Notes: generated from the letters alone by a model not told the origin. Numbered from the stretch's first letter, positions 8,572-47,540 are shown. The stretch is DNA of 64,000 nucleotides from Leucoraja ocellata (GCA_036785375.1 JAWMAR010000331.1:1550001-1614000); one strand, 5' to 3'. Numbers and translations are program-made.

Positions 8572-8973
8572 TTAGGTTTCTTTTTGTCATGAATATTGAC
8601 TACTTCATTATATCCGACGTGGAAAGCTTTGTTTTGCCAAACTTAAAAGGAATAGGTAGAGCAAATGGAAAAGATGCAGAACACACAATACAGTTGCCAG
8701 CAATGTTCCATAGATAAAGTCCAATGTCAGTAATGAGGTGGGATGGAGAATAGTGAGATTAAACGAGTACTTACCAGTGCGAAGTTTGATCTGTATTTTA
8801 TGAGGAGTTACGATGAGGGATTACGTGAAGAACCCACCCAGTGCGCAGGCGCGGCATACTTCCAAGCAGCGGTGTGGAATCACAGGTAGACACAATATTT
8901 GAAGTAAAGATAGTAAAGATTAAAGAGACATCAGCTCGAGTTTGATCCATATACTGAGGGTGGGAGCGGAAGG

Positions 8974-9086
8974 CACGTAATCCCTCATCGTAACTCCTCA
9001 TAAAATACAGATCAAACTTCGTACTGGTAAGTACTCGTTTAATCTCACTATTTTACTTCGGAGTCACGTGAGTGACTACGTGAAGA
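8974..9086 (-). promoter_or_regulatory. DIRS-A internal complementary region (ICR)
   Basis: 8974-9050 is the reverse complement of 8751-8827 (1 mismatch in 77); 9051-9086 is the reverse complement of 13519-13554, reproducing the circle junction CTCACTA|TTTTACTTCGG. Confidence 0.95.
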
Positions 9087-9205
9087 CTTCAAAGATCTGT
9101 GATTTCAAACCGTGTAACAGCTATATCACTCGCTGCCGAAGTTATCGAGGGAGGAAGTGGTATCTAAAGACCAACAAATCTGTTTGTTTTTTGAAAACAA
9201 AAATG

Positions 9206-9211
9206 TTTATT
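9206..9211 (-). terminator. Candidate AATAAA polyadenylation signal after the YR stop
   Basis: TTTATT on + strand, about 35 nt downstream of the YR stop and upstream of the ICR. Confidence 0.5.
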
Positions 9212-9246
9212 AAACAATAACAAAAATAGCTCCCTTGGGCTTAAAA

Positions 9247-10224
9247 TTATAAGTTTGCAGTTTCTAAAATTTTCTCTGCAAACAAGTCTTTCTGCATCAG
9301 CGGTTTATGATAGAATATCCGGAACGTCGATTCCCTTGACCATCCTGCTGTGCTTAGGATGTGGTCTATGGGAACATCCATCCGTTCCGCAGCTGACGTA
9401 GATGCTGCCCTAATAGAATGGGATTTAAAAACATCAGTGTTAATCCCTGCAGCTTTCAGGACCTGTTTTAACCACCTGGATATAGTTTGGCTGGTTACCC
9501 GTCCAAAAGGCTTCTTGTGGCTGACCCATAAGGCTTTTTCACTCCCTCTAAGTGTATGGGTTGTGTCTACATAGTTGTATAAATGGGTCACTACACAGAG
9601 CCTAGGTTCTGGAGGGTAGGCCCGGAAGATTAATGGCGAGTTGGACATACCTGGCCTGCTTTGTTTAACTAACCCCGGCATAGTGAATGTGATGCAGTCT
9701 GGGGTAGTTACCATGTTGTCCAGTCGTAGTTGATGTAGTGACTGGACCCTTTGTGCAGAGACAAGCGCCATTAGCATGAGGGTCTTGAGTGTGGATTGCT
9801 CTAGACTGAGGGATCCCACCGGTAACCATCCTCTGAGGTGTGATAGCACAACACTTATATCCCATACATGGGTATACCTGGGTGTAGGGGGTTTGTTATT
9901 GTAAATCCCCTTGAGGAGTTTTATGACTAGCGGGTGGGACCCGATGCTATGGTGTCCTGTTGGCATGAGATAAGCGGACAGGGCACTTCGTGCTGCATTG
10001 ACGGCACTGTAGCTCATCTTCTGGTCATGGTGTAAATGGGCCAGGAACTCCAACACGTCCGTGATTGTGGCTGTCTTATACGACGTCCCTGCATCCAAGC
10101 AGTACTGCTCCCATTTCTTGATATATGTCAGGTACTGCTTCTTGGTTGAGTCTCGCAGGGATGCCGACATGGTGGTGATTGTTCTCTCTGATAAACCCAG
10201 TTCCTGGTAAGGCCTGGTTAAAAC
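9247..10224 (-). CDS. DIRS tyrosine recombinase (first in-frame ATG at 10170; frame open from candidate acceptor at 10224)
   Basis: Intact 307-aa ORF with SAM-like N-terminal region and catalytic motifs AQR, HSIR, AGW, FY; upstream GLSERTITT matches the DIRS-B peptide GLSDRTMNL. Confidence 0.95.
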   Translation of the reverse strand, partial: VLTRPYQELGLSERTITTMSASLRDSTKKQYLTYIKKWEQYCLDAGTSYKTATITDVLEFLAHLHHDQKMSYSAVNAARSALSAYLMPTGHHSIGSHPLVIKLLKGIYNNKPPTPRYTHVWDISVVLSHLRGWLPVGSLSLEQSTLKTLMLMALVSAQRVQSLHQLRLDNMVTTPDCITFTMPGLVKQSRPGMSNSPLIFRAYPPEPRLCVVTHLYNYVDTTHTLRGSEKALWVSHKKPFGRVTSQTISRWLKQVLKAAGINTDVFKSHSIRAASTSAAERMDVPIDHILSTAGWSRESTFRIFYHKPLMQKDLFAEKILETANL

Positions 10225-12158
10225 CTACAAACCAGGAGTTTTAAATTTTTATGGCATGGATGACTTATGCCGGATACTGGGTGAGTCAATAGCTGTGGGT
10301 GACTGTTAAAGACCATAGGTGACTCAACCACCATGTCGTGAAAGACTGGGAACCATGGTTGGGTAGGCCAGTCGGGTACGACCAAAATACCTGAAGCAGA
10401 GTCTGACTGTATTTTCTGGAGTACCCGGCTGATGAGGCAGAAGGGAGGGAAAGCATAGAAGAAGAAATTTCCCCAATCCAGCGTGAAGGCATCTACCGCT
10501 GCTGCCTCTGGGTCTGGTTCCCAAGCCACATACATGGGTAACTGGTGATTCAATCTAGACGCGAACAAATCTATATCTGGCGTTCCATATTGCTTAGTAA
10601 TTTTTGCAAATATTTTTGGATCTAACATCCATTCGATGTTATCATTGAATTTTCGTGACCTGGTGTCTGCCACTGTGTTTAGCTTACCTGGTAAATAGGC
10701 AGCTGATAGCCAAATATGTCTCTCGACACACCATTGCCAGATTATATTAGCCAATTTGTCGCATGATACTGATTTTATGCCACCCATGTGCTTGATGTAG
10801 GCCACCACCGTTGTATTGTCAATCATTAACCTAACATGCACGTGCTGCATATTGGATGAATATGCTTTTAGCCCATAAAAGGCGGCCAGCATTTCCAAAT
10901 AATTTATGCCTAGTGAGTGTAGCAGCGATGTCTCGGAATTAGTCCATCTGCCACCTGTGCTGGATATAGAGTTAGTAGCTCCCCAGCCTAAAGCACTGGC
11001 ATCCGTCGTGATGACTATGTTAGGATTGGTGATGACAATGGGACTGTAACTGTGCCAAATATTTTCTGACCACCACTGAAGTTCTGATATGGCCTCAGTG
11101 GGTAAATACATTGTTCGGTCATAATGCCCCCTACTTTGGTGTAGTGCATGTGTCCTTGCTCTTTGTAAATTTTGGTAATGCAAGGGTCCATATTGTGCAG
11201 CTGGAAATGCTGCTACAATACTTCCAATGACTCTGGCAACATGCCGGATCCTTGGTTGTGTATTTGCGATTAAATTGTTGCATGCTTGCGCTAATGCAAC
11301 CTTTTTATCCCTTGGCAGAGTAACAGTCATGTGGATAGAATCGATGGTGAAGCCTAGATAGTCCATGTTAGTTGACGGCTTCAATTTCGATTTATCTGGG
11401 TGTAGAACAAATCCCAACGTTTCAAGGAGTTGTTTAGTAGCTGAAACTGCTGCGACAGCTAGTTCCTTGGTTTTCCCCATTATGAGAATGTCGTCCAGAT
11501 AAGCCATGACTAGGTATTTTTGTTCTCTTAATATTTTCATGGATACTTTAAGAATTTTGGTAAATAATCTGGGAGCTGTCATTAACCCATTGGGCAGTGC
11601 TCTATATTGCCATTGTTGCCCCATCCAGATAAATTTCAGGTATCTAAAATGATCCTTGTGAATGGGTACTAAATAGTAAGCATCTTTGATGTCTATGCTT
11701 GCCATGAAGTATCCCTTGGAGATCAGTTGTCTGGCAGTGACAAATGTCTCCATTTTGAAATGTTGATACTCAACAGATTGATTTAGTGATGTTAGATCAA
11801 TGATGATGCGACATCCACCATCTTTTTTGTTTTTAATAAATATATTTGATACAAATTCCAATGGCTCATGTCTGGTCCTTTCAATGACTCCTTTAGACAT
11901 GAGCCTACCTAGTTCAGCCTGTCCTTCCTCCTTCTCTAGTTCAGTGGGAAGGAATACCCTTTGGGGTATATGCTGAACCGGCGGTATTATGCCTGTTTTA
12001 AATTCAATTTTGTATCCACTAATACTGTTGAGTATGTATTTGTTGTTAGTGATAGTACACCAAACATGTTTAAAGAACCGTAAACGCCCTCCTGTTAGTA
12101 AAACACCCTTGGTTTTTGTATGTTGACAGGAACCAGACCCACCTACCTCCATGTTCAT
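10218..12158 (-). CDS. DIRS pol: reverse transcriptase, RNase H and adenine-methyltransferase-like domain (646 aa from ATG 12158)
   Basis: SIDIKDAY, LPNG, YLDD (RT); TTDASALGWG, INYLE, DNTT, ADTRSR (RNase H); IDLFAS, YAFPPF (MTase-like); uninterrupted. Confidence 0.96.
   Translation of the reverse strand: MNMEVGGSGSCQHTKTKGVLLTGGRLRFFKHVWCTITNNKYILNSISGYKIEFKTGIIPPVQHIPQRVFLPTELEKEEGQAELGRLMSKGVIERTRHEPLEFVSNIFIKNKKDGGCRIIIDLTSLNQSVEYQHFKMETFVTARQLISKGYFMASIDIKDAYYLVPIHKDHFRYLKFIWMGQQWQYRALPNGLMTAPRLFTKILKVSMKILREQKYLVMAYLDDILIMGKTKELAVAAVSATKQLLETLGFVLHPDKSKLKPSTNMDYLGFTIDSIHMTVTLPRDKKVALAQACNNLIANTQPRIRHVARVIGSIVAAFPAAQYGPLHYQNLQRARTHALHQSRGHYDRTMYLPTEAISELQWWSENIWHSYSPIVITNPNIVITTDASALGWGATNSISSTGGRWTNSETSLLHSLGINYLEMLAAFYGLKAYSSNMQHVHVRLMIDNTTVVAYIKHMGGIKSVSCDKLANIIWQWCVERHIWLSAAYLPGKLNTVADTRSRKFNDNIEWMLDPKIFAKITKQYGTPDIDLFASRLNHQLPMYVAWEPDPEAAAVDAFTLDWGNFFFYAFPPFCLISRVLQKIQSDSASGILVVPDWPTQPWFPVFHDMVVESPMVFNSHPQLLTHPVSGISHPCHKNLKLLVCRF
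12141..12149 (-). promoter_or_regulatory. Candidate splice donor GAG|GTAGGT four codons into pol
   Basis: ATG AAC ATG GAG|GTAGGT, phase 0; ATGGAG|GTAGGT also in DIRS-B (44433-44422). Confidence 0.65.
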
Positions 12159-13383
12159 TTTTGGGAGCGTCTCCGTTGGTGGGTTTGGCTCGAGGGCGTT
12201 CTTGTTGGTGCTGTCACGGGGCGGCGTATCTTCCCACGGCTCCACTCTGGGCCCCTCTCTAAAAAAGAGCTGTGGGGGTAGTGAGGAGCGGTCGCCAGGC
12301 TTTCACCAGTCCGGTATCTGCTGGTGGATGCCGAGGGGTGCTGCCAACTGGGTGTCTTCGCCCTGCTCGGCGCTGGTCCTGCCCTCATGAGGCCTACTGG
12401 TTTGGCCGCCTCTTCAAGTTCTTTGAGCCTTTTCCCCAGGTCAGCCCCAAATAGCAGTGCCTCTTTCTCTGGCGCAGGAGCTTTGCAAAGCCCCGCATAT
12501 TTGGGGTTGAGGGCAGGCCTGATGTTTTCCCGCCTTAAGTTGTTCATCTCAAAGTGGGTGTTACACATCAGAGCTAGGACATCCTGTTGGGGTGTAGTGA
12601 GGTCCGTGTGCTCTGCGGACCGAGCAAAGGCGGTGATGGCTGCGGTATGGAGCTTCAGGATGCGCTGCATCTTCAGCTCTTGGCTCCTGATGTGTTGGCC
12701 TAGCTGGCTCCATATCTGGCCATTGACGGTCTTAACCCGCAGCTCCTCACAGTTCTCGGGTGCCGTGTACGTCTCGAGAGCCTCCTGGAGTACTTTCTCC
12801 TGGAGAGGCTTGTTGGATAGCCGGTTTATGCTTGCCGCCATTTTTGGGCTCAGCATTCTCCCGGCCCTCGGGGGCGCCGCATATCTGTTGACCACACCCA
12901 GCAGCTCTTCTTCCTCCTGCTCCCCTGGCATACTTGTGCAGTCGTCCGCCTGCCCCTGCGATAAGCCAGCCCAGTCCTGGCCTCCCTTGCTGACCTCAAA
13001 CAAGGAGGGAGCAGAGGGGTAAGGTGACGGTTTGGAGGAGGCCTCAGCCCGTCCTCCCTGGAGATGCCTTGCCTGCATCTCCTGCTCGAACATTTGTTCG
13101 AGGAGCTGCCTCATGCAGCTTAAGCGGCTGTCTCCCCGTTTCGCCGGTGGAGAATGTTCCCGATCCTCCAACGAGCAGAGACCACCGGCCGGTCCGTTTT
13201 ACGGGTGGATTTCCTCCCTGTGCGAGGTGTTGAAGTCGGCAGCACAGGGAGCGGCTCGGGGTCGGGTGTACGGGAGCGCTGAAAATGCTCCTCTGCCGCC
13301 AGTGGCTGCCGCCCAGATGTCGACCCTTCCTCGGGGGGAGTTGGGCAGGCAGTCCGTTTAGTTTGTCGCTTGCGGGTAGCCAT
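12155..13383 (-). pseudogene. DIRS gag-like ORF1, apparently broken by one frameshift
   Basis: ATG 13383 (MATRKRQ...) stops at 13120; the main 338-aa frame (PENCEELRVKTVNGQIW, RRENIRPALN, LLFG) is closed by a TAA near 13200, so the shift lies in about 13120-13200; the gag TGA overlaps the pol ATG (ATGA). Confidence 0.8.
12259..12286 (-). promoter_or_regulatory. Candidate 3' splice acceptor upstream of the pol ATG
   Basis: CCTCAC branch-like motif, then CTCTTTTTTAG (AG at 12260-12259); CTTTTTTAG at the equivalent position of DIRS-B (AG 44563-44562). Confidence 0.65.
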
Positions 13384-13414
13384 GCTAGCGACTTCTCTGC
13401 AATACAAAAGACTC

Positions 13415-13423
13415 ACTTACCTG
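13415..13423 (-). promoter_or_regulatory. Candidate 5' splice donor CAG|GTAAGT in the DIRS-A leader
   Basis: Perfect consensus, GT at 13420-13419, 37 nt upstream of the gag ATG. Confidence 0.7.
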
Positions 13424-13559
13424 AGGTCTTGTCTTTATCCTGCAGCTGGAGAGCCTGGCTCCAGCTGCCGCCGCTGTTGCGCTGCTGGCGTAATGCCGCG
13501 CCTGCGCACTGGGTGGGTTCTTCACGTAGTCACTCACGTGACTCCGAAGTAAAATCCGA

Positions 13560-41438: not shown

Positions 41439-43662
41439 TAATTGAAAAGTACAATAGAATCAGTCAATTTAATCTTGAAAATAGTTAGCAACTTATGAAT
41501 AACACAACTAAAGGTGAATAAACTTGATGGTGCATTGCCTTTTTTGATAATATAACATCCTTATAGCATCTTCTTTGTCTAGGTGGGCAATAATGGACAT
41601 CTTTCACGGGCAATTAACATTCATAATTGTGTTGCTGTATATTCTAGTTCAGAAGATTAACTGAGCACTTCATGTTGCCATTAATGCTGATGAACCTCGG
41701 TGTCTTAATTTTCAATTGCTTTTCAGTAATCCTCAAAATGCTTGGGAATCTGGAATGTACTTCCAGTAATTTTAAGATGCACTAAGTCATGCTCAAATTG
41801 TACTTAAATGTATTCAATTAATTGGGGGGGGGGGGGGGGGGAGAAGCCTGTTCAATGTATTGTACTGAACAGTCTATCTGTTCATATCACTACTGCTGCT
41901 CTGAAATATTTTATAGAAATTTGAAAAATAAAACATCTTTTGCTTGTTAAAGGCTCCTCGGGAGAAACCTATGCAGAACTATGAATGAGGGAGAAAGGAT
42001 AAAAACAAAAGTGGGTACTGAACTTAAGGTCAGGTTTAAAAAAAAAGTCACTTTCATCTTATTCCATGAACAGAAAGATTCACTGAAGTGTAATGACAGT
42101 GATCTGTTTTTTTGGTGTGTTGGGGGTGGAGTGAGACTATTTGTGTGAGTGTAATAAAATAGTAAGATTAAACGAGAACTTACCAGTTTGAAGTTTGATC
42201 TGTATTTTATGAGGAGTTACGATGAGGGATTTCGTGAAGAACCCCGCTTCCACGCATGCGTGTCATTCTTCAAAGCAGCGGTGTGAGGTCACAGGAACCT
42301 ATAATGATCTAACATAGTAAGATTATCAAAGAGATACCAGTTTTTGATATGATCATAAGAGGGTGGGAGCGGAGGGCACGAAATCCCTCATCGTAACTCC
42401 TCATAAAATACAGATCAAACTTCAAACTGGTAAGTTCTCGTTTAATCTTACTATTTTACTTCGGAGTCACGTGAGTGACTTCGTGAAGATTTCAAAGCTC
42501 TGTGACCTCATGCCGTGGAACGAGTCCATGCTTCACAACTGCCTTGGGTATTGGGAGAGAGCATCATTAGTAATTTTAAAACACAATTATACAAAGAGTT
42601 GTGTGGTATAATGAAAAAATTATATAACATTTTTTAAAATTTGAGAATCATAGCCCTGTAACCTTTCGGGCAATTATTTTGTTGGACATAAAATGTCTTA
42701 ATACAAATGATGGCTCCAAAATTTAACTGGTTTATTATAAAAACCTGTGGAAAAACCCTTTTTGAATGACCATCCTGCCATTCTGAGGATTTGGTCTGAG
42801 GGTACCTGTACAAATTTTTGCTGCGGATGTTGCTGCAGCCCTGGTGGAATGAGAGTTAAAACATTAGTGTCATTTTTAGGACCTATTTGAGCCACCTAAT
42901 ATAGTTTGAGTCGTGACCCTTTCATGCGGTTTCTTTTAAGAGATAAACAACTCCATTTTCTGACCTCGAATGTTCTTAGTATATTCCATATATTGTTAGA
43001 TGTGTCTTGCTATACACCGTCGTTTGCCATATGGGTGTACCATAAATTCAAACACTTGACCTGAGGAAACCCGATCTGTTTTCTTTTATTAAATCCTGTA
43101 TGACAACACCAGTTTCTCGGTGAGATGATCAGGGAGTCCAGGCTCAGTTTGCTTAATGGCTGGACTTGTTGTGCGGTAAATAACACCATGAGCATAACCA
43201 TCATCCTGGTCTGTTACTGAAGTGACAACGCTGTTATGAGCTACAAGCTCCTCAGCATGTTGAGAAACGACACCCACGTCCCAGATTTCGGAGTACCTGG
43301 TTTTCTCACCAGGGGTGCGTTCCCACCGCTTGCCGCTCCGTTCCTTGTGATAGGTAATTGGAGAGTGCACTTGTGGCACTATTGATGGCACTGTAGCTCC
43401 ATCGATTATCATAATGGAGGCTTGTAAAAATTCCAATACGGCCAGAATGTTCTTGGCCTTTTGGTCGAGGTTGTTGTCCAAGCAGTATATGCCCCATTTC
43501 TTGATGTCCAAAGGTACTGCTTCCGTGTTGACAGTCTTAGTGCAGATGAGATGAGATTCATCGTCCTGTCTGACAGCCCAATGCCGTGCAGTGGGTCTTT
43601 AGCCTCTATAAATCCATAGTCTTATGGCATGGATGACAGCCTCCAGTCACTGGAAAATTAAT

Positions 43663-43664
<2 letters not shown>

Positions 43665-43710
<46 letters not shown>
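43665..43710. repeat. T46 homopolymer inside the DIRS-B pol remnant
   Basis: Seen directly. Confidence 0.9.
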
Positions 43711-43711
<1 letters not shown>

Positions 43712-45587
43712 GCTATGTTCAATAGGGAACATGGTTCTAAACCATCCCCTGTATGACCGAATACCATGATTTAGAAGGTCAGTCGGAACTCTGAGAATTC
43801 CAGATGCCGAGTGTAGTTGAATTATCCCTAGTACCCCATTGATGGGGCCGAACGGGGGAAAAACATCACCCTATGGCTTTGTTACATAACAATGCCAAGC
43901 TGGTTTTAGAATTTTAGTAAATAATATTGGAGCTAATGATTGCCCCTATTGTAAGCTCTATTGCCAAAGTTCCTCTTTTGAGTCAATGCCTGCCATATAG
44001 AAAACCCGCAGCTGACACCAAGTCTTATCAAGAAAAGAGAGTATCCATCTTAAAATGAATATCTAGAACAAATGTGTTTAGGGTTAAAATCAATGATAAT
44101 CCTGCAACCCTACTCTATTTATTTTTAATAAATATGTTTGATACAATTCTAATGTTCCATGAAAAGTATGCTCAATCACATCTTTTGTGTACAATTTTTG
44201 TAGACCATGTGGGTTTTAGATTGTTTGGTTTATGTAAGGACAAAATGCCCTTCTGGTGTATGTTGTACTGTGGTTATTGGAATGAGTAAATCTTATCAGA
44301 TAACCCTGAATACTGCTGAGATTATATGAATCTGTAGTGATTATATACCATACATAACTGTAGTGTTGTAACTCCCCTACCATCATAGGTCCCTATTTTA
44401 AAACAGAAGAAAACCCCACCCACCTACCTCCATGGTTACTGGTGGTTGTGTTATTTCCTTGGTTTTTTGACAAAGGAGGTTCTGGTTTGATATCTCTTGT
44501 TCGGGGTTGTGTGGGAGGTTGAGGTTCCCGCATCTTCCAGGGTGGCCGCCCTGGCCATACCCTAAAAAAGGATCCTGCGGGTTATTGATTTCTAGCACTG
44601 CCACTGGTATGAGCCACATTATTTATGGCGTTGCCTGTGGCCGGTATCATGCTCCAAAATAGGCCCTTGCGCTGGCCTTGATGAGCCCCAGTGTCTTGGC
44701 TTTGTCCACTCACGGTTCTTTGTTTGCAAATGGTAGCATTTTTTGGGGTCCCAGTGCTGGCTGAATGGCCGCCTTCCATGTGTAGTTCAGATCATATTGC
44801 ATATTACTAAACAGAGCTAGTGCGTCTAGATGGTCTTTGGTTACCTACATTTAGTCCAGGGTGCGAGTGTATTCTATGATGCCTTCCGTCAATCCCTTTA
44901 AGGTTCTCTGGATCTTGAGGTCCTGGTTCCTGATGTTCGTCCCCATATGCTGCCAAATGCATTGGTTTACACTGGGCACCCGTAATGCCTCACCGTTGCC
45001 AGGTGGCAGATGTCTGGCCAGTGTCTGTAAATTTTTTCCCTGTTGGCGTTTGTGGCCAGACATATAGTAATACTATTGCCATCCTGGATCCAAGTCTACC
45101 CATGTTTGACTTGGTTAAAGTAATCAGCCACCATGTCCAGCAGAGTCCCTGCTGTGTTAGGATCATGGGACGCTGTATTACCAGGCTCTGGCCCATCAGG
45201 GTCCTGCCTACTCTTTTTTATAGAGTTAGAGATCTCTAGGGTCCCGCACGGGGTACCCATGTGGGGCTTAACTGCTGCCCACTTGTCTTTTGTTCTGCGG
45301 ACCCCTCTTGCAAGTCAACCCAGAACTGACCCACAGTGCTCCCCTCTGATGGGGTAGAAGCATTGTGCAGCCCTCAAAGAGGTACTGCTGTGGGTTTATC
45401 ACGTTGGAGCAAGGCTCCATACACCGCTTCTTCCCGCTCCAGCCCTCTCGGGCGCTGGTTGCCGGCGGTTTTATGCAAAGTCGGACCCTTCTCAGTCCAC
45501 TACCCCCGTACTGACGGCACTGGTCCCTTGCGGTCGTTGCAGCCGGTCAACCCCACTCTAACGCCCTCAATTCTGGGCACTCCTACT

Positions 45588-45643
45588 TATATGGTCCTTA
45601 GCTAAGGAACATATAAGACATTAAAACTGATGATAACAGCTAT
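45588..45643 (-). pseudogene. U2: Second, more diverged partial U2 copy (about nt 37-90)
   Basis: TAGCTGTTATCATCAGTTTTAATGTCTTATATGTTCCTTAGCTAAGGACCATATA aligns to TATCTGTTCTTATCAGTTTAATATCTGATACGTCCCTTATCTAGGGACCATATA. Confidence 0.75.
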
Positions 45644-45653
45644 TATAGATTTT

Positions 45654-45749
45654 ATTTAATATATGGTCCCTAGATAAGGGACGTATCAGATATTAAACTG
45701 ATAAGAACAGATACTACACTTGGTCTTAGCCAAAAGGCCTAGAAGCGAT
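45654..45749 (-). pseudogene. U2: U2 snRNA 5' domain (nt 1 to about 96), embedded in DIRS-B
   Basis: Minus strand ATCGCTTCTAGGCCTTTTGGCTAAGACCAAGTGTAGTATCTGTTCTTATCAGTTTAATATCTGATACGTCCCTTATCTAGGGACCATATATTAAAT; includes the GTAGTA branch-recognition sequence and stems I, IIa, IIb; stops before the Sm site. Confidence 0.95.
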
Positions 45750-45908
45750 CATTGTAACTAAAACCCTGGTACTCACATACTGGTCCCTTGTAGTAGATTG
45801 CAGCCAGACAACTGCCAAGTCCTTTGCTGCTGAAAAATGAATTTTCTCACCGTGCTGGAGCGAAGTTGGGCACAGGTGTTTTCCTCCTCCGGGAATCGAT
45901 GTGCCCAT

Positions 45909-46150
45909 GCAGCTCCTGCCGTTGCCAGCTCCTGCCGTTGCCAGCTCCTGCCGTTGCCAGCTCCTGCCGTTGCCAGCTCCTGCCGCAACCTGCGCTCCTG
46001 CAGCTGTCAGTGCTCCTGCAGCTGCCGGCTGCCACTGCTGCTGCCCGTACTCCTGCCGCTGCCGGTACTCCTGCAGCTGCCCGTACTCCCGCAGCTGCCG
46101 GCTGCCACTGCTGCTGCTGCCGACTGCCGCTGCTGCTGCCGCTGCCGCTC
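45909..46150. repeat. 16-bp tandem repeat (GCCAGCTCCTGCCGTT, about 4.5 copies) grading into CTG/CCG-rich repeats
   Basis: Seen directly, inside the DIRS-B 5' region. Confidence 0.9.
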
Positions 46151-47540
46151 CTCCGCGGTTCTCCCGCCGGCCTTCTGCAGCTTACATGGACCCGGTCCAT
46201 GTCTGCACCTAGAAGGTAAGTTGAAGGAAACGCAGGGTCTCTTACCTGCTGTTCCCGACTTTCCTTCTCCCGCTGGTGACCGTCGTTCCCTCCGTTGCGG
46301 GTTGGAGCCGCTCGGACCAAACCCCGGTGTTCACGGGCCTGGTCCTTCGCGGCAGTTCCGCAGCCGGTAAAACCCGGCTGTTCCTATCCCGGTGCCTACC
46401 TTTTGAAGAAGGTTTTCGTCCCCAACGTCCCGTTCCGACTCCATAAGTGCCGCTGCACTCGCTGAGCGTTTCGAGCCCCGGTACCGCTGGTCCGTGCTGT
46501 CTGTCCCGCAGCCTCTGCGCTGGCTGCTAGCGACTGGTCCCAAGTCAGTCTCGCTTGAGACTGGCATACGGGACCTCTTTACTTTGCTTCCCGCCCGGCC
46601 GAGAGGTGAATTTTGCCGGTGCGGGAGCAAAGTCGGGCACAGGTTGTTCCCCTCCAGGGAACTCGTGCTGTTGCTGCTGCCGGCTGCTCGCCCTCCACGG
46701 GTCTCCCCGCCGGCTTTCCGCAGCCACCTAAAAGTAAGTAGTAAAAGAGGGAAACGCAGAGTCTCTTACCTGCTGTTCCCGACTTTCAAATTCTCCCGCT
46801 TGGGGAACGCCGTTCCCCCTGTGTGACTCGTTGCAATGCGTGTAGCGATATGACACGCATGCGTGGAAGCGGGGTTCTTCACGAAGTCACTCACGTGACT
46901 CCGAAGTAAAACAGAAGCTTTTTGTTAATTTTCTCATTGAAGTTTATGTTACTACAGCTCACATTGAATTCCTGTGGGTCACGTATTAGTCAAACAGTAC
47001 ATCACAAGCAGCATTTGAAGCACAGCTTAAAGTTTTTCCTCCACTGTGTGTCCTTGCGCCACTGGATAATTGATTTTTACAAACATTTAATAGAGCGTGG
47101 AGCTTTTCATGCCAGAAATATATGTCAGGAATTTGGACAGGAAGGTTGCAGGGCCCCACATGATTTTCTGTCCATTAATTTTAATATTACAAAACCTCTT
47201 GCGCTCCAAACATTGATTGTTGATAGTGTTTGCTTCAAAAGAACAATATGCTGAGAACAAGATTGTATAAAATCCACCCATCCATCTCTAGAATTTGCAA
47301 TATGTTATATAGTTCTGTTTATATATTTGGTAGGAGGCTTCTAAGTTGCATTAACATATGAAATAACCTGTTGGGCCAAATTAACTTTTGATAATATTGA
47401 TGACACCATAACAAATTCGTATCACTCGCATGATATCAGCAAACAGAAATTTCAGCTGGTGTTTGCTTTGAAACTTGGTTGTATGGACAGAGCAACTACT
47501 TATCCTAGATATAACACAGATTAAAGCATTTGTGGTTTTA

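Follow-up and report, generated by a model that had tools for sequence, protein, structure and literature searches.

Spliced subgenomic RNAs are produced by retroviruses and by copia and gypsy elements. The sequence U_UUU_UUA is the frameshift heptamer of human immunodeficiency virus 1 (HIV-1; accessible part of PMC4373837), and for Ngaro elements a frameshift at the overlap of the reverse transcriptase (RT) and tyrosine recombinase (YR) frames has been proposed as the way in which YR is made (Poulter and Butler 2015, as quoted in the accessible part of PMC13003380). DIRS1-like elements carry gag, RT/RNase H/methyltransferase (MT) and YR frames, inverted terminal repeats together with an internal complementary region (ICR), as described in the accessible part of PMC3266345. 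In the term-searched portions of the DIRS papers, the translation of pol and of the often start-less recombinase frame is unexplained: PMC3266345 gave no account of splicing or of the translation of pol and YR, and a Xenopus preprint (10.1101/2021.08.05.455354) and PMC2685390 gave none of splicing, frameshifting or slippage. No paper was found on either frameshifting or splicing in DIRS1-like gag-pol, or on their coupling; two reviews, one by Poulter and Butler (2015) and one by Poulter and Goodwin (2005), may mention either. Here, two DIRS1-like elements, DIRS-A and DIRS-B, were compared in a stretch of 64,000 nucleotides (nt) from Leucoraja ocellata (GCA_036785375.1 JAWMAR010000331.1:1550001-1614000), hereafter the window. 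DIRS-A has gag, pol and YR frames, DIRS-B has remnants of all three, and both have the inverted terminal repeats and the ICR set out in PMC3266345. DIRS-B is a dead copy that retains frameshift and splice signals: its motif CTTTTTTAG, near the end of gag, most likely acts as a site of -1 ribosomal frameshifting from gag into pol, and comparison with related families supports the view that its GAG|GTAGGT behaves as a splice donor.

A sequence-only reading of DIRS-B had proposed that splice signals recur in it at positions equivalent to those of DIRS-A, with CTTTTTTAG (44570-44562 on the minus strand, AG at 44563-44562) as an acceptor near the end of gag and ATGGAGGTAGGTGGGT (44433-44418, minus strand) as a donor at the start of pol. 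Both motifs are correctly placed, their DIRS-A counterparts lie at 12267-12259 and 12152-12137, respectively, and the segment from AG to GT measures 134 nt in DIRS-B and 112 nt in DIRS-A. The same reading accurately described two additional ATGs in the DIRS-B segment (44558 and 44533, out of frame with ATG 44433), a YR start at which the frame following TAG| (first base 43605) stops early and GAG| (43603) opens the YR frame, and a partly deleted YR acceptor region, which is 6 nt shorter than that of DIRS-A from the conserved His codon. DIRS-B is also diverged from DIRS-A as stated (approximately 56-62% identity over four aligned stretches). The 17-nt match at the donor is the longest exact run that the two copies share; other exact runs of 16, 14, 13 and 13 nt fall in ordinary coding sequence, and 53 runs reach at least 9 nt. 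With approximately 60% identity and exact runs of 13-16 nt elsewhere, the pair cannot show RNA-level constraint. The constraint proposed from it is supported by related families, and the DIRS-A/DIRS-B pair alone proves little. Because a two-copy comparison was insufficient, 88 loci encoding related pol proteins were gathered.

These loci are mostly from metagenome assemblies, with named homologues from animals, and together with DIRS-A and DIRS-B they form 58 clusters at 80% nt identity. The metagenome scan matched at least 597 stretches; among the matches listed, 444 were relatives, of which 80 were kept, and metagenome loci were picked by pol patterns, FYAFPPF[CS] among them. Viral contigs gave no match when scanned with a single protein; an alignment scan gave 2 loci. 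Loci L082-L088 are DIRS pol relatives on contigs of bacterial metagenome-assembled genomes, probably as eukaryotic contamination. At least 250 nt before RT were available in 41 of the 58 clusters, and 35 have a gag/pol overlap of 60-400 nt; the clusters used for the heptamer counts are thereby preselected for an open overlap (6 of 41 dropped). This overlap set leaves out c20, c21, c22, c45, c55 and DIRS-B, broken copies among them. The acceptor test covered 44 clusters, DIRS-A being counted in both the 35 and the 44, and donors were scored over the 130 nt before RT. These sets show the signals themselves and the phases in which they stand, a conservation that exceeds what the proteins require, and covariation of the signals.

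A slippery heptamer is widely shared at the gag/pol junction. Of the 35 clusters, 34 carry an X_XXY_YYZ heptamer in the gag phase, or 30 if a final G is excluded; dinucleotide shuffles predict 11.2 (8.8), and each of the two remaining phases holds such a heptamer in 15 and 3 clusters, respectively. Among the 34 clusters, the heptamer is U6A followed by G in 19, A_AAA_AAC in 6, U_UUU_UUG in 4, U6A without the G in 3, U7 in one and G_GGA_AAC in one. The codon after it is often GGG or GGC (19/35), and exchanges between A_AAA_AAC and the U type number 3 among 26 labelled tree rows. In DIRS-A and the overlap clusters, pol lies in the -1 frame and is open from the heptamer; in DIRS-B this frame is broken. 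These patterns make it very probable that ribosomes slip at the heptamer. That the U6 or A6 run instead acts through polymerase slippage, during transcription or reverse transcription, is hardly credible: homopolymer runs are prone to slippage, and RT slippage at the HIV site is a topic of PMC5737442 (accessible part), but polymerase slippage does not account for the fixed codon phase, the run of exactly six or heptamer classes that fit tandem tRNA slippage.

The same counts bear on the proposal that CTTTTTTAG is an acceptor. In a three-exon arrangement, a leader donor would be joined to CTTTTTTAG, a middle exon would supply an ATG, and the second donor would be joined to the YR acceptor, perhaps in the DIRS-A/DIRS-B lineage alone and beside frameshifting. 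Leader CAG|GTAAG sites do occur in both DIRS-A and DIRS-B, each of which also has an ATG two codons ahead of the donor, AG follows U6 in 19 of 22 U6A sites, acceptor scores reach 7.4 (DIRS-A) and 7.1 (DIRS-B), and the pol of the close relative P0080 likewise starts MEVGG. However, AG is present at the slip site in 19 of 34 families and absent from 15, a pol-frame ATG between heptamer and RT is lacking in 22 of 34 (DIRS-A and DIRS-B have one), and the U-run, always in gag phase, is exactly six in 27 of 28. A leader donor scoring at least 8 within 300 nt of the first gag ATG was found in only 2 of 21 families, a count that misses DIRS-A's own site because the DIRS-A gag start is broken, and no conserved counterpart of the DIRS-B duplicated leader donors was found in most relatives. 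Nor did three RNA-seq runs and a contig set contain the joint 13421/12258, from the DIRS-A leader to CTTTTTTAG. As an exon size, 134 nt does not hold up either: the distance from heptamer to donor is 120 nt in DIRS-A and 142 nt in DIRS-B, which is not a multiple of 3 and thus marks the DIRS-B length as an indel in a dead copy. The three-exon arrangement is therefore improbable. What stands of the proposed splice signals is the donor and the in-phase YR acceptor, both by conservation; CTTTTTTAG as an acceptor of general function, opening a middle exon, does not. In the DIRS-A/DIRS-B lineage, the ATG before the donor, the DIRS-A AUGA and the leader donors could nevertheless give a second route close to it. 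The AUGA (12155-12158, minus strand) is an overlap of the DIRS-A gag stop with a pol-frame ATG, possibly a stop-start signal, and is absent from DIRS-B. The first ATG of DIRS-A (13382) is out of frame with the long gag open reading frame (ORF), which marks a lesion near the gag start of this copy too (13198-13382).

Locus L076 differs in that its heptamer directly precedes a 145-nt GT-AG segment (2164-2316) that is open in frame, on one contig only. With the segment retained, gag and pol form a single ORF, and with it removed the usual gag stop and -1 arrangement result; the ratio of Gag to Gag-Pol may there be set by splicing.

The evidence for the post-gag donor does not depend on the DIRS-A/DIRS-B pair. 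Of the 35 clusters, 32 have their top-scoring donor in pol phase 0; in the remaining 3, a phase-0 site lies 4 nt upstream. Its score is at least 8 in 28 of 35 clusters, compared with 3% of 450 pol windows of the same size, and lies above synonymous resampling in 35/35, which answers the synonymous-site check suggested for this motif. In all 35 clusters the donor lies at or past the gag stop; in DIRS-B, TAA at 44438-44436 is at the same distance from the donor as the DIRS-A gag stop. The Val codon of the donor is GTA or GTG in 34 clusters, a following Ser is AGY in 17 of 17 (background 22%), and the exonic AG and the +5 G are both absent in only 1 of 35. The encoded residues vary widely under this constant nucleotide consensus (EQVST, KSVSN, HPVSD, IKVNF), so MEVGG is not the conserved feature. 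Removal of the predicted post-gag intron in vivo is regarded as quite likely. Tandem donors 4 nt apart, of the GTAGGTGAGT type, occur in L004, L010, L012, L015, L076, DIRS-A and DIRS-B, the second being out of phase with the YR acceptor.

At the other end of the predicted intron, 37 of 44 clusters have their top-scoring acceptor, among sites near the end of pol, in YR phase 0. Two positions predominate: the Arg codon of the terminal Cys-Arg, as in DIRS-A and DIRS-B, and the codon after FPPF, approximately 70 codons earlier. The DIRS-B AG at 43605-43604 is the positional match of the DIRS-A acceptor, with a damaged tract and a score of -1.4. The two positions are nearly exclusive, AG being present at FPPF in 20 clusters, at Cys-Arg in 16, at both in 1 and at neither in 7. 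Where AG follows FPPF, the YR frame is open from there in 21/21, compared with 0/23 where it does not; in two families with a TCN Ser after FPPF, the YR frame is closed. The upstream type changes 6 times on the tree, 3 of these changes being forced by strong branches. A further recurrent acceptor-like AG in YR phase lies approximately 292-295 nt before the pol His631 codon, usually followed by in-frame stops. A pattern-based count of Gln at the upstream acceptor (8 of 10 proteins) contains doubtful matches and is given no weight. The predicted intron has GT-AG ends, a consensus donor and an acceptor rich in pyrimidines, the acceptor of DIRS-B being decayed. In DIRS-A, it would remove RT, RNase H and MT and join the pol frame to the YR frame.

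Protein constraint or chance, through the Phe-Leu of Gag, the MEVGG of Pol and the terminal Cys-Arg of pol, is a very unlikely source of these patterns. The other exact 13-16 nt coding runs common to DIRS-A and DIRS-B fit such an account, and Arg is mostly AGR. Yet donor residues change while the nucleotide consensus stays, Phe-Leu gives way to Lys-Asn where the heptamer is A_AAA_AAC, and Cys-Arg is encoded as CGN, with loss of AG, only in two families, both of which have the upstream acceptor. The sequence-only reading had named synonymous drift of the motifs under protein constraint as the outcome that would count against it; across related families, protein constraint by itself fails for both motifs.

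Taken together, the favored model, which we consider probable overall, combines a frameshift with a post-gag splice. DIRS1-like elements would use a single promoter and two recoding steps to express their three genes. In the first, ribosomes translating gag would slip back one base at U_UUU_UUA (in other families at A_AAA_AAC, U_UUU_UUG or G_GGA_AAC), enter the pol frame and make Gag-linker-RT/RNase H/MT. In the second, part of the RNA would be spliced from the donor just behind the gag stop to the acceptor at the start of the YR frame. Because the donor lies after the gag stop, the spliced RNA would keep all of gag; it would yield whole Gag and, through the same slip, Gag-linker-YR. The Gag part would then carry both enzymes into the particle. 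An in-frame ATG between the slip site and YR Trp38 is absent in 6 of 23 families, which leaves the Gag-linker-YR route as the simplest, and YR is rather likely to be made as a Gag fusion and packaged. When donor and acceptor were joined in silico, the frame ran on into YR without a stop in 20 of 23 loci, and 2 further loci were skipped; this result is given little weight because acceptors were chosen among in-frame open sites.

Several observations weigh against this reading. The splice scores depend on the matrices used. Only 3 independent pairs that bear on the covariation of acceptor type are well supported, each going in the expected direction (sign test p 0.25). The Cys-Arg AG is weak alone because AGR makes up 69% of Arg codons and a single clade holds 15 of the 16 families. 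In 17 of 23 families, an ATG in the YR or pol frame offers an alternative start, and a gag-frame stop lies inside the donor in 31 of 35. Any stimulatory structure is modest: folding downstream of the heptamer gave mean z of -0.59 and -0.77 (standard error 0.2-0.25), compared with approximately 0 in control windows, a perfect-stem test reached p<0.05 in 4 of 35 families, and neither the DIRS-A stems nor the DIRS-B hairpin was significant relative to shuffles. A search of sequencing runs with DIRS-A listed no RNA run that contains it. Raw reads of three RNA-seq runs and the contigs of a fourth were compared with DIRS-A at 88% likeness, with a joint threshold of 3 reads and 3%, and none contained the joint 12147/10224 of the predicted intron. 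Donor depth was approximately 5, 33 and 35, acceptor depth 26-29, and no drop across DIRS-A pol was seen in the run with a sense excess. Finally, in five other database models pol is joined to YR at different places, which implies that gene finders produce such joins freely.

The RNA result is a weak null, since the largest class of reads is only 90-95% alike, two runs have no strand bias and the tissues are unknown; few reads are 99% alike, which together with the missing strand bias suggests read-through of many diverged copies. In run X18, three reads skip 437 nt (12988/13426) with non-canonical ends, which lie at most 5 nt from the DIRS-A leader donor and 1 nt from a pyrimidine-rich AG inside gag.

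Some of these points would also be expected if the frameshift into pol is real and YR is reached without splicing, by its own ATG, by reinitiation or by a second slip, the donor-like motif having a different function, for instance in binding U1 or as a reserve gag stop. The missing junction reads on DIRS-A, the gag-frame stop within the donor, the ATGs in many YR frames and the frameshift proposed for Ngaro YR all fit this alternative. It leaves unexplained, however, the fixed pol phase of the donor and the matching acceptor phase, the YR frame that is open back to the upstream AG in all 21 clusters, the families that have no in-frame ATG, and the DIRS-A YR frame, which is closed by TAG at the acceptor itself. 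Additionally, a gag-frame stop requires neither the +5 G (28/35) nor the +6 T (25/35) of the donor. Expression of YR without splicing is thus considered unlikely.

Database gene models provide a further view of the frameshift and splice model. Among the best 150 YR representatives, the RefSeq predictions XP_071502116.1 (Diadema antillarum, sea urchin) and XP_046546323.1 (Haliotis rubra, abalone) consist of gag, an FFR linker and YR, and their junctions lie 21 and 93 codons before SWR, corresponding to the two predicted acceptor distances. We infer that the frame change shortly before FFR in both is the gene finder's substitute for the slip. No clearly spliced YR protein was found among the 90 YR proteins listed. 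P0202 and P0204, longer members of the closest YR cluster, were considered as spliced products and rejected because their start lies in unspliced sequence. The protein P0302 (Logan) may be a spliced product.

The positions of the two elements and their parts are given in Table 1. DIRS-B pol has lost approximately 1.1 kb (the C-terminal part of RT and RNase H). The Pfam domains PF00589 and PF00078 match DIRS-A YR and pol, respectively, and the closest named homologue of YR is a skate protein (71% identity). Both pol sequences contain the FPPF motif; PF12237/PF05869 match some homologues, and no Pfam methyltransferase domain matched DIRS-A pol itself. The U2-derived insertion in DIRS-B comprises approximately 100 nt of the 5' part of U2 followed by a degenerate partial repeat, tandem 16-nt repeats occupy 45910-46142 in its 5' region, and its 46-nt poly(A) run is possibly the tail of a tiny retroposed insertion.

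Table 1. Coordinates of DIRS-A, DIRS-B and their parts, counted from the first letter of the window.
Feature	Position	Strand	Remarks
DIRS-A	8749..13555	minus	DIRS1-like, nearly intact comparison copy
DIRS-A frames	gag-frame ORF 13198-12155; pol 12302-10218; YR 10224-9247	minus	
DIRS-A slippery heptamer	12260..12266	minus	pol frame open from 12 codons upstream into RT
DIRS-A predicted intron, 1922 nt	10225..12146	minus	GT 12146, AG 10226-10225
DIRS-B	42155..46914	minus	decayed DIRS1-like copy; tblastn with DIRS-A gag, pol and YR, plus terminal repeats and ICR
DIRS-B left terminus / inverted terminal repeat	46850..46914	minus	95% complementary to 42223-42266; 97% to ICR part 42451-42489
DIRS-B duplicated leader	46241..46772	minus	CAG|GTAAG donor-like sites at two places (GT 46769, GT 46245); duplicated region 46223-46787
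DIRS-B U2 snRNA-derived insertion, 5' part of element	45582..45749	minus	Rfam RF00004, 110.9 bits
DIRS-B gag remnant (3' part)	44436..45030	minus	38% amino acid identity to DIRS-A gag over 95 residues; stops, indels
DIRS-B slippery heptamer U_UUU_UUA, then GGG	44563..44569	minus	previously read as an acceptor
DIRS-B 6-bp GC-rich hairpin, 8 nt past heptamer	44537..44554	minus	candidate stimulator; z -0.3 to 0.2, p ~0.09
DIRS-B gag/pol dual-coding linker, slip site to donor	44428..44562	minus	frame broken by indel
DIRS-B putative 5' splice site GAG|GTAGGT	44422..44430	minus	GT 44427-44426, directly past gag stop
DIRS-B pol remnant	43609..44433	minus	matches only DIRS-A pol residues 5-200 and 617-689
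DIRS-B poly(A) run, 46 nt, inside pol remnant	43665..43710	minus	
DIRS-B putative YR acceptor, decayed	43603..43617	minus	AG 43605-43604, in YR frame
DIRS-B tyrosine recombinase remnant, frameshifted	42725..43603	minus	tblastn
DIRS-B ICR	42377..42489	minus	complementary to 42155-42236 (82 nt, 100%) and to the left end (39 nt)
DIRS-B right terminus	42155..42266	minus	terminal-repeat comparison

Extended to animal DIRS1-like elements, the frameshift and splice model would have one -1 frameshift feed either Gag-RT/RNase H/MT or Gag-recombinase, as chosen by splicing, with a YR acceptor that has moved between at least two sites in pol and dragged the dual-coding region along; on balance, this wider statement is slightly favored. 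If true, the moving acceptor would explain the variable pol/YR overlap as well as the delivery of the recombinase by a protease-free element. The families studied here have short overlaps; among other DIRS proteins, a YR frame that overlaps all of pol is seen. For annotation, the slip site rather than the first ATG would mark the start of pol, and the acceptor used would determine how far pol and YR overlap. For each family, the result names exact and cheaply testable sites, namely a slip site of seven bases, a donor and an acceptor, and the predicted products are Gag-YR and Gag-Pol fusion proteins.

Frameshifting and splicing are each already known from retroviruses and long terminal repeat elements. 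DIRS families share with the HIV-type gag-pol slip site the same heptamers, the gag phase and a pol in the -1 frame, but have no clear strong stem-loop. They also differ in that DIRS elements have no protease (accessible part of PMC2685390) and in that the integrating enzyme lies outside Pol. As in the spliced RNAs of retroviruses and of copia and gypsy elements, the proposed intron would remove pol from part of the RNA; in contrast to these, the DIRS donor lies past the gag stop and the slip site, and the recombinase would still need the frameshift. The Ngaro YR resembles that of DIRS in being a start-less frame, -1 to pol, that requires a recoding step. The YR frame of DIRS-A, however, is closed by a stop where it overlaps pol, and the evidence favors splicing for YR and frameshifting for pol.

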